In this document: in pieces, positions 14,968 to 17,900 of the stretch
How positions within the stretch are numbered: position 1 is the first letter of the stretch
Layout: the number at the start of each line of letters is the position of its first letter
From: Rhizophagus irregularis
Lineage: Eukaryota
Direction of reading: 5' to 3'
DNA length: 64,000 nucleotides
NCBI RefSeq assembly: GCF_026210795.1
Contig: NC_089434.1
Coordinates: forward strand, 1-64,000
Program-made: the position numbers and the translations under genes
Notes under the pieces: model-generated
Told to the model about the DNA's origin: nothing
Database searches by the model: none
What the model saw: the letters and a program-made list of their open reading frames with translations, nothing else

Positions 14968-17900
14968 ATCAAGACGAATCGAATGGTAGTAAAATCACAT
15001 GTCTACAGTTGATAGAACACTTTATAGTATGCAATTAAGTTTTAAATTAATAGAAAGTCATCTATCGAATATAAAGATACGATTTTACTACCATTCGATT
15101 CGTCTTGATGAGCTGATTCCAATGAGTTATTCATTCTGATTGGATCAGTAGATAGCAAGATATTCTTAAATTACTATAATTATTCAAATTTAAGAGTGTA
15201 AATTTTTGTAATATTATATTTTTAGTGTAATATTTTGAAATTTTATACCACCTCTGAAATATTACACTAAATTATGTTTAAACAAATTTCCTGATGTAAA
15301 TTATAAACTTATGGTATAAGATTATAACTGGTAAGAAATTCATAAATAGGTTCAAAAAACTTTTCTCCAAATTTAACAAGACAACATAATTGAAGATTAA
15401 GCTTAATATTATTTAATTATGAATAGAATATTTTTAATTTTTCAATATATCTTTGTGGCACTTTTTTAATAATGCTTAATTTTTAGACAAACCATTAAGT
15501 AAATTGAAGGTAGATTGCATATTGTTCAAAATATTGTTTTGCTGTTCGTAATTTATATAACCATCTCATCCTAATTGGTTTTTAATATTTTGTTAGATTA
15601 TAATTTAAAAGTTTTTTATAAAGTTGATATATTACATCTGTTTTTATATTTAAAGAATTATCTTTATCACTTTCATTATATCCATCATGAAGATAGAAAG
15701 CCAGATTTATTAAATTATATGGATGTTCTTTTAATAATAATCCTGATAGTGAGTCAAGTTTTCCAAATGCTATATTTTTAAAGTTCATTAATATGATTTG
15801 AACAACATGTAATCTATAAGGAATATGAAAAAAATCTGCAGCTGCTATTGTATTGAAGCATATTATTGCGCCTTCTTTTTCTGCTGACATATATGTTGTA
15901 TTATCACCCTATAAAAAATATGTATATAGTTTTTATATTGTATATACATATTTTTGATACAGTTCACATTTTTACATATGGCATATCAGTATAATGTATA
16001 CTGTTCGCAATATGTGTTTAGTAAAAAATATAATAAAGTATATGGTAAACATATTGTGTAATACAGTATATTAAATTCATACGTTTATAACATATACCAT
16101 TTCTACTGTATATCAGTATTTTGTATACGGTTCACAAAAATATTGTAAATAAAGGATACGGTATACGTATTATTCTACAGTATATTAAAATTTATACATT
16201 TATAACGTATTTTCTACAGATATACACAGGTCAAATAAATAAAATCAGATTTTTGCTCTTTTTAATATGGCTGTCTTATAGATGTCATCAGAATTCCCTA
16301 ATTATGACATTTTGGAGTTACAACATATGTTATTAATCATGCCGTAACCATAATAAAATGCTATAAATCATAAATGCCATAATTCTGTAATTTAATTTGA
16401 TGCTGTAATGCCATATTTTAATCTAGCGTTGTAATGCCACAAATAGCCGTAAATATTTTTTTTTAAAAAAAAATGTTTACAATGCACCTTTTTTTTTAGA
16501 AACAGTTCTTTCTGAAATATTATTAACTTCTTTTATTTTATTTTTAGAAGTATTTTCTCATATTTCCCAGACTTCCTGTAGGTAAAGGTTTTTTTTTATT
16601 TACTTTTAACAAATGATATTAACTAACTTCATTTCTTTTTCTTTGTATTTAGGAACAGTTCTTGTGGACTTATTGTACCTCCTAGTAAATAGTAAAGGAT
16701 TTTTTTTTTTTGACATTTACTTTAGGAAATAACATTAACTTCGCTTTCTTTTTTCTTTTTTAGAAGCAGTTCTTGCAGGATTTCTTGGATTTTCTGGTAA
16801 GTGGAAAGAGGTTGTTTTTGATATTTACTGTCAAAAACAACAACTAAATTTATTTCTTTTTTTCAGAACAATTTTTGTGGACTTCTTAGACGACTTCATG
16901 GTTAAGTAAAGAGGATTTTTCTTAACATTTATATAATAATGTATGCAAAAAAAACATGTCTAATAAAAAGTAACCCAACAATAGTACATATATAAAAATG
17001 TTCTTATTTTTATATAATAATGTATGCAAAAAACACGTCTAATAAAAGTAATCCAACAATAGAATGTATATAAAATGTTTTTGTTTTTATTTTTATTAAG
17101 ATGTTAATTTGTATAAAATACAAAAAACTAAATAAGATACACGAAGAACTTTGTAGGTAGGGAATGGTTCAACCATTGACGAATCTATGGTAAGCAGAGG
17201 AAAGTTTCTTGCATTTACTTTTAAGAAATATTATTAACTTTCATTTCTTTATTCTTTAGGAACATTATCTAGTTACCTGTTGGAATTGAACTAGTTTGGA
17301 CAAATGTCTAAACCATTAATAAATAAAATTGAAACAAATCAAACAACTTAGAAATTTTTGAAATTTTTTATTATTACGAAATAAAAAATATTTTGTGTTA
17401 CATAAACTTTTAATCAGTTGATGTGTAACATGAATCACAATTTTGATAATCTTTTTTTTAATTTAAATAATCTTACAAATTGTGTATTACATTTTTGCTT
17501 TTACATAATCTTTGTGACTGTAAAAATGGATTCAACAGATTTATTTGATAATCAAAATATTAGAGAAGTTAGAAGGGGTCGTAAAAAATCACATGTCTGG
17601 GATCATTATTTTAAAGAACCATTGGGTAGTGAGCATTACATAGCTAGATGTCATTACTGTAATCAAAACTGGTCTAAAGGAAAACCAGAAATTTTGAAGC
17701 CACATTTAGCATTGTATTGTAAAGATGTTCCACTATATATTAAAACAGAATATATGGAAATGCTGGCTGTTGAAACTACATCTACTAAGCATAGCGAACA
17801 TGCTTATATCACCTTGCCGATCATTTGCCGATCATATTATATGTGATATCACACTAATTTTGAGACTTTATTCCAGGCCATAAATATTCTAAAAAATCAT

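Follow-up and report, generated by a model that had tools for sequence, protein, structure and literature searches.

Why would a transposon carry, just inside its end, a row of intron-like repeats that encode no protein? The question is raised by a 64,000-nt stretch of DNA from Rhizophagus irregularis, a root-symbiotic (arbuscular mycorrhizal) fungus (NC_089434.1, positions 1 to 64,000; the window in what follows). The window covers a chromosome end, AT-rich and with a TAACCC telomere, that is crowded by DNA transposons; within it, inside the left end of a hAT element, lie four near-complete units of ~105 nt, each an intron plus a microexon, together with broken ones. A first-pass annotation had described the array as non-coding introns in the 5' untranslated region (5'UTR) of a hAT transposase. 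We found that the array is real and beyond chance, that its units are probably introns able to splice, and that in related elements such an array is one of a mirrored pair. We tentatively propose, at somewhat less than even confidence, that these arms let transposon RNA be spliced like host RNA and so escape RNA-based silencing.

Strict intron-like units occur three times in 16440 to 17300, against a mean of 0.04 and a maximum of 1 in 1,000 dinucleotide shuffles, and the other strand has none; a strict scan of both strands of the whole window returned 17 units, all of which (17/17) fall within three transposon arrays. Repeat finders placed the units in families D5, D7 and D12 at 67 to 80% identity, and Tandem Repeats Finder did not call the array. 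The six acceptors of the first-pass annotation (16499, 16547, 16652, 16763, 16866 and 17259) are all present, each a T tract followed by YAG, and its ATTAAC/ACTAAC branch motifs lie 25 to 34 nt upstream of four acceptors. Its donors (GTAAAG at 16582, GTAAGT at 16797 and GTAAGC at 17190) are there as well, and further donors are found at 16449 (GTAAAT), 16578 (GTAGGT), 16685 (GTAAAT) and, in degenerate form, 16901 (GTTAAG). The units have the features of U2-type introns (GT donor, YTRAY branch, pyrimidine tract and YAG acceptor); they are partly decayed, and one is split by an insert of ~230 nt (16926 to 17150).

Relatives of the element were gathered by a metagenome scan in which 132 candidate stretches yielded 15 loci (L001 to L015). 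Near-duplicates exist among them (L004/L005/L011 and L007 to L010), and the flanks of L002, L006, L010 and L013 are too short for their arms to be judged. A homologous array is cleaner in L001 and L015 and decayed in L003, which bears out the array's assignment to the hAT family. L015 is a complete element with inward arrays in both arms, which are 83% identical over ~1.1 kb and hold 8 anchored introns on the left and 7 on the right; its open reading frame (ORF) has a stop at codon 50. L001 also has arrays in both arms, with an open 704-aa ORF beside clean arms. Different units are found in both arms of L012 (89% identical over 158 nt), L014 has yet another left unit, and L004/L005 have decayed right units. 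One arm of a mirrored pair is antisense to the transposase. Exon lengths of 22, 31, 32, 37, 41 and 42 nt in L015/L001 and of 32 to 34 nt in the window do not keep frame; a coding microexon gene was therefore rejected, and the array is non-coding, as had been claimed. An Rfam scan of L015, L001 and L012 gave a single match (E 0.74), outside the arrays and far under the gathering threshold, and so no known RNA or snoRNA family.

The splice signals appear to be under constraint. We anchored units of L001/L015 by a mid-intron motif (n = 23) and found GTAAGT in 23/23 and a terminal AG in 23/23, figures that overstate the constraint in that the anchor missed the degenerate innermost right-arm units of both loci. 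The anchored introns differ by 16% on average. None of the 8 splice-signal columns varies, whereas variation is seen at 34 of the 52 remaining intron columns and at 18 of the 19 G/C columns (Fisher p 6e-4, for units that share descent). Of the coding-intron donors of L001, L015 and L003, only 2/11 read GTAAGT. We regard this comparison as good though not clean evidence that the splice signals are held constant. The hexamer AATAAA is missing from the inward strand of both L015 arms, the left arm of L001, the right arm of L012 and the arm of a Mutator-like element (MULE) in the window (0 occurrences in each). When the left arm of L015 was spliced in silico, perfect 21-mers complementary to the right arm fell from 421 to 42, and the ~1.1-kb duplex was reduced to pieces of 34 to 40 nt beyond a terminal part of ~200 nt.

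Folding of the introns gave a lead only. Hairpins that hide the donor or loop out the branch point reached z scores of -3.2, -3.9 and -3.3 in some units, and 7/10 folded units had z above -2; covariation among 27 hAT introns was not above chance, its score being reached by 94/500 shuffles. Branch-point stems of 7 to 12 bp occur in 17/49 array contexts (including L015, L001, L004 and 54.3 to 55.3 kb of the window) and 0/8 controls, and none of 7 bp or more was found in L012, the MULE or the hAT units of the window. An AGAAAC..CTAAC motif was observed 10 times (shuffle mean 3.4, maximum 10, 200 shuffles); the pattern was taken from the arrays, and we do not count it as evidence.

Splicing was assessed in 4 public runs (X6, X21, X22 and X24) aligned out of 24 listed. 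None is recorded as RNA for this stretch, and their reads and contigs stem from other copies of the family, not from the window copy; the run records are filtered, which makes absence of coverage weak as evidence. Contigs of X6, RNA by our guess, join 16577 to 16653, 16684 to 16764 and 17189 to 17260, removing predicted GT..AG introns of 75, 79 and 70 nt. A fourth X6 joint would fit donor 16797 and a cryptic AAG at 16906, judging by the three letters between its sides. The donor in use is GTAGGT at 16578 and not the one at 16582. Arrays in the metagenome contigs of L001/L015 are unspliced.

The proposal of splice-armed terminal arms is built on what was observed of the arms, namely their anatomy and mirror symmetry, splice signals that do not vary, and splicing in a single data set, and the MULE of the window adds to it by sharing the mirrored inward layout. 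Transcription would run inward from both ends, from a terminal promoter or by read-through from the host. Sites matching the U1 and U2 consensus would be spliced fast and hold off early termination, and the clean arms offer no inward AATAAA; R. irregularis mainly uses AAUAAA as its poly(A) signal (10.1101/2022.10.19.511543). Of the two arms in a read-through RNA, just the first would lie in a spliceable direction, and its splicing would strip most of the complementarity to the second arm and with it most of the potential for fold-back double-stranded RNA (dsRNA). Silencing would then weigh less on elements bearing such arms. A single intron-plus-exon unit was probably duplicated in tandem to build the arms, which were copied between the ends. 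The literature provides a setting: CG methylation on transposable elements (TEs) and an expanded RNA interference (RNAi) set in the host (PMC8647823), RNAi triggered by poorly spliced transposon RNAs in Cryptococcus (PMC5851062), HUSH silencing countered by introns (PMC8770142), and dsRNA and silencing from transcribed inverted duplications of Ac (10.1101/2020.01.07.897926).

Several observations weigh against splice-armed ends. Splicing was seen in contigs of one of the 4 aligned runs, X6, whose status as RNA is a guess; X6 itself also holds an unspliced contig, and the poly(A) runs X21 and X22 (47 and 38 reads) and X24 (17 reads) gave unspliced intron reads and no splice joint. The earlier claim that the units are introns is supported by the three exact joints and one cryptic AG joint of X6; in the runs without joints, exons of only 32 nt that come from diverged copies may have been difficult to align. 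In L003, an open 692-aa ORF stands beside a decayed left array, and no right array is present. The mirrored arms of the close hAT relatives L007/L009 consist of a 20-nt repeat and are free of introns, and the left arm of L007 (1 to 790) has no AG across 790 nt and 12 GGAC words on its inward strand. The outer ends of ~200 nt would remain complementary after splicing, and the donor count is inflated by the anchor, as stated above. In Gigaspora, intronless copies of another Glomeromycota element are expressed more highly than intron-bearing ones (PMC13465315). Finally, the ORFs of L001 and L015 are 96% identical, and an end type that lies on one side of the ORF in L001 is found on the other side in L015, so that arm exchange could preserve an intact right arm even if that arm had no function. 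The swapped end types (L001 1 to 50; L015 92 to 140 and 5340 to 5387; L003 3640 to 3695) suggest that the core was inverted or that one arm was converted by the other.

The arms could instead be a tolerated 5'UTR expansion, in which a leader unit was duplicated and copied to the other end, the splice sites are preserved solely by the need to remove the left arm from the transposase mRNA, which it perhaps enhances, and exchange keeps the right copy; we consider this unlikely. The left arm runs in the same direction as the ORF, the X6 contig spliced at the innermost intron reaches 17480, 46 nt short of the ATG, the end types of L001 and L015 are swapped relative to the ORF, and arms can be dispensed with (L003) or be free of introns (L007/L009). 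A spliced leader would, however, be ~550 to 600 nt long with 9 to 10 upstream ATGs in L001/L015, compared with a mean 5'UTR of 116 nt (10.1101/2022.10.19.511543). Between the last acceptor and the ATG, L001/L015 have 8 ATGs and 2 AATAAA, and the window has 3 of each. Relatives conserve motifs in this interval (TGTTACA at 17396, TGTAACA at 17424, TTGATAATC at 17443 and TTACATAAT at 17501), and those 90 to 180 nt before the ATG are kept with and without arrays; they may represent the ORF's own promoter. Moreover, the arms of L015 are just 83% identical, yet 15/15 of their anchored donors are perfect. No read or contig of the 4 runs covers the transposase ORF, which counts for little in filtered records. 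The first-pass annotation was right that the transposase ATG at 17526 lies on the same strand just downstream, heading what is now only an ORF fragment (17526 to 17786, resuming at 22072) split by insertions; its 5'UTR reading is not supported, in view of the antisense right-end array, the intervening ATGs and AATAAA signals, and the uncovered ORF.

That uncovered ORF would also fit self-restraint, in which stable spliced non-coding arm RNAs curb the transposase, the left as a long, untranslatable isoform laden with upstream ORFs and running over the ORF promoter, the right as antisense. The many upstream ATGs, the spliced RNA that crosses the candidate promoter to 17480, and a right arm antisense into the ORF end agree with it, while AATAAA in the right inner region precedes the ORF end and the array in the ORF-less element at 54 kb is unexplained unless inherited; we think it improbable. 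End-binding sites of transposons are typically mirror-symmetric, and by analogy the arms might act as DNA, their units binding the transposase or a host protein through the exon word GGAC(C/T)TT, or spacing the ends, with the splice signals a secondary tolerance. GGAC is biased to one strand in L015 (10 versus 1), L012 (6 versus 0) and the intron-free L007 (12 versus 0). We nonetheless find this reading rather improbable, though a little less so than self-restraint: the element already has subterminal repeats of the GCCGTAA type, distinct from the array and outside it, it is the splice signals that stay invariant, GGAC occurs once in the MULE arm, and L003 has no right array. Least probable by some way, in our judgment, is a gene trap or damage limiter, whose outer acceptors would capture host transcripts for their promoters or render read-through RNA processable. 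Inward acceptors at both ends would allow capture in either orientation, and Glomeromycotina TEs often lie near or in genes (PMC11952901). Against this, one acceptor would suffice, no outward donor/acceptor pair exists for removal of the whole element, and no host exon joined to an array exon was seen in the 4 runs.

Arrays of this kind recur in the window, as the first-pass annotation had noted, and are found in the arms of the MULE and in a non-autonomous element at 54.3 to 55.3 kb. Their description as independent is not borne out, in that a profile built from the hAT introns alone scores in both before it reaches a coding intron: the 54-kb array is matched at 7 places (E 1.7e-6 to 4.3e-3) and the MULE at one mirrored intron (9e-4 and 8e-3), with the top coding intron at 0.075. 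Some of these matches may be due to low complexity and commonplace splice signals, and the sequences are compatible both with a shared origin and with a shared design among families. Introners were considered and rejected; across the window and 13 loci, profile matches at E < 0.01 lie solely in tandem arrays inside elements. The MULE has 6 to 7 inward introns per arm, partly in a 156-bp tandem unit, and a transposase frameshifted near 9.7 to 9.8 kb. The element at 53893 to 55677 has TAAGGTTGC-type ends, a 112-bp unit, an array running inward from one end, and branch points in palindromes of 8 to 12 bp; a 240-bp element at 14723 to 14967 shares these ends.

A general TE strategy, as the first-pass annotation had it, is no more than plausible, on the basis of one window and 15 loci, among which the arms of L007/L009 are intron-free. 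The broader idea, that transposons of at least the hAT and Mutator superfamilies in arbuscular mycorrhizal fungi evolved or exchanged one terminal module of inward optimal introns, disguising their RNA as host mRNA and disarming fold-back dsRNA, would make the module a protein-free counter-defence against splicing-based surveillance; we offer it as a possibility that is more doubtful than the splice-armed arms themselves. Hosts are known to tell their RNA from that of transposons by introns and splicing quality, and a matching counter-move in transposon ends is undescribed in the literature searched. The hAT relatives with clean, decayed, missing-right or intron-free arms form a natural comparison for a possible protection by introns. 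The arrays would also be expected to mislead gene predictors into multi-exon hypothetical genes.

The host element belongs, by its sequence, to the hAT superfamily and to the R. irregularis family of P0001 to P0009. Proteins of R. irregularis account for 21 of the matches to the ORF at 17526 among 27 candidates, and the transposase pieces are 88 to 93% identical to P0003. DUF659 scores above its Pfam cut-off for 31702 to 32046 and for P0003, and zf-BED (E 0.003) and Dimer_Tnp_hAT (E 0.0013 in P0006 and L001) fall below their own. The hAT transposase motif set is D, D, CxxH, RW and E; the window pieces carry AVDEW, VVSDAE, CMAHH and RWST, and the E motif is found in relatives only. The transposase ends at ~32050, and its C-terminal part and the right arm lie nowhere in the window. 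Short terminal inverted repeats (TIRs) of TATAGGTG bound L015 on both sides and L003 on the right, and a decayed form stands at 16277, where the match to reads and contigs from other copies stops (16276 to 16277). An 8-bp target-site duplication (TSD) would have to be read from both flanks, which no locus offers: the sequence of L015 stops at the right terminus, and a right end is missing from the window. CpG numbers 3 in 184 nt of the left end in the window, 15 in 169 in L015 and 17 in 140 in L001, and 24 of the 37 listed differences are AT-ward transitions, 13/24 at CpG. With this decay and three nested insertions in its transposase, the window copy is dead and decaying. The coordinates are collected in Table 1.

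Table 1. Coordinates of the array, its host element and the other intron arrays of the window
Position	Strand	Feature	Evidence
6636..12455	.	MULE, 1.2-kb inverted arms 98% identical, inward intron array in each, 9-bp duplication	
16277..16290	+	Left terminus (TIR), decayed form of the TATAGGTG end of L015 and L003	Sequence match
16300..16455	+	Subterminal short repeats, ATGCCGTAA type, CpG-decayed	Comparison with relatives
16449..16499	+	Outermost predicted intron, 51 nt, GTAAAT..TAG	Sequence; splicing unseen
16500..16577	+	Exon remnant fused by deletion to intron 3' half (acceptor 16547), then 30-nt exon	X6 contig reads unspliced
16578..16652	+	Intron, 75 nt, GTAGGT..TAG	Absent from X6 contig
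16653..16684	+	Microexon, 32 nt	X6 contigs
16685..16763	+	Intron, 79 nt, GTAAAT..TAG	Absent from X6 contig
16764..16796	+	Microexon, 33 nt	X6 contigs
16797..16866	+	Intron, 70 nt, GTAAGT..CAG	Unspliced too in X6, X21, X22
16867..17189	+	34-nt microexon, degenerate donor 16901, ~230-nt insert, last microexon remnant	Sequence
17190..17259	+	Innermost intron, 70 nt, GTAAGC..TAG	Skipped in X6 contig reaching 17480
17260..17525	+	Region between array and ATG, 266 nt, candidate ORF-proximal promoter	Motifs kept in relatives
17526..17787	+	Transposase 5' part, BED finger	R. irregularis proteins, 93-94% identity
17788..22069	.	Nested insertion 1, 4.3 kb, 9-bp duplication, short TIRs, frameshifted DUF6589-like ORF; splits transposase	
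22070..22617	+	Transposase continuation, coding intron 22358-22433, first catalytic Asp motif	
22618..31410	.	Nested insertion 2, 8.8 kb, CACTG..CAGTG ends, 3-bp duplication, 81-bp tandem array	
~31413-31690		Third small insert, ~280 nt	
31702..32049	+	Transposase DUF659 part: second Asp, CxxH, RW motifs	
54318..55311	-	Inward intron/32-nt-exon array, non-autonomous element (~53893-55677)	

Several of the nested sequences have features of their own. The insert at 16926 to 17150 contains an internal duplication of 78 to 81 nt, is seen in X6 contigs of other copies and is unmatched elsewhere in the window. Insertion 1 has 14-bp TIRs, a foldback right end and a C-terminal RING-like finger, and its ORF resembles DUF6589 clusters (score 0.93, of weak recognition value). 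Insertion 2 is CACTA-like, and ~7 kb of it is an 81/243-bp higher-order tandem array, in which no introns were called; this array is interrupted by a TAAGCTC-ended element (25057 to 25997) with an 80-bp palindromic array, and related sequence lies at 58920 to 59641. Elsewhere in the window, a second hAT element with a dimerisation domain (33287 to 37610) is interrupted by a Tc1/mariner element (~34446 to 35753) that has an open frame of 356 aa. Foldback elements nested at 13310 to 15307 contain palindromic units of 326 bp, with related sequence at 38060 to 38507, and a type-B DNA polymerase fragment with an endonuclease VII-like finger on the minus strand (38604 to 39863) is putatively Maverick/Polinton-like. 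Within 60 kb of the telomere there are also an astacin protease gene (4568 to 5305), a Transposase_21 element (43023 to 46286), an ORF with a Crinkler N-terminal domain (48508 to 48999) and a DDE_1 (Pogo-like) element (57003 to 58679).

The hAT family is known, and mirrored arms of inward introns and microexons of up to ~1 kb are undescribed in the literature we searched. Targeted searches, with subscription journals and supplements outside their scope, returned no description of mirrored inward arrays of strong introns plus microexons, the nearest being Glomhopper. The available parts of three genome and TE papers on arbuscular mycorrhizal fungi (PMC8647823, 10.1101/2022.10.19.511543 and PMC11952901) mention no such arrays; in that of PMC8647823 the words "intron" and "splic" have 0 occurrences, and its supplementary TE libraries could hold these elements.

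Compared with other members of the hAT superfamily, the element is alike in its transposase, short TIRs and subterminal repeats, and differs in the intron-plus-microexon arms added inside the subterminal repeats. Foldback, Galileo and long-TIR MULEs have long inverted arms of tandem units, with variable copy number and arm exchange. Long inverted tandem arms are likewise found here (83% identical in L015, 89% in L012 and 98% in the MULE), with the difference that the unit is a complete spliceosomal intron, its signals near-perfect, plus a non-coding microexon, readable inward only. Ds and dSpm are transposons spliced as introns; they and introners resemble the arrays in having repeated, near-identical, transposon-linked introns, whereas here the introns stand in tandem within the element, carry no individual TIRs or TSDs, and would not take the element out of a host RNA. 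Glomhopper, a CryptonA element of Glomeromycota, also bears introns, with junctions supported by RNA-seq, but these are coding-gene introns at variable positions (PMC13465315). Lastly, SCANR of Cryptococcus (PMC5851062) and HUSH (PMC8770142) are host systems of other lineages in which the silencing of mobile-element RNA depends on how well it splices or on whether it has introns, and by analogy with them the arms look fit to evade surveillance of this kind.

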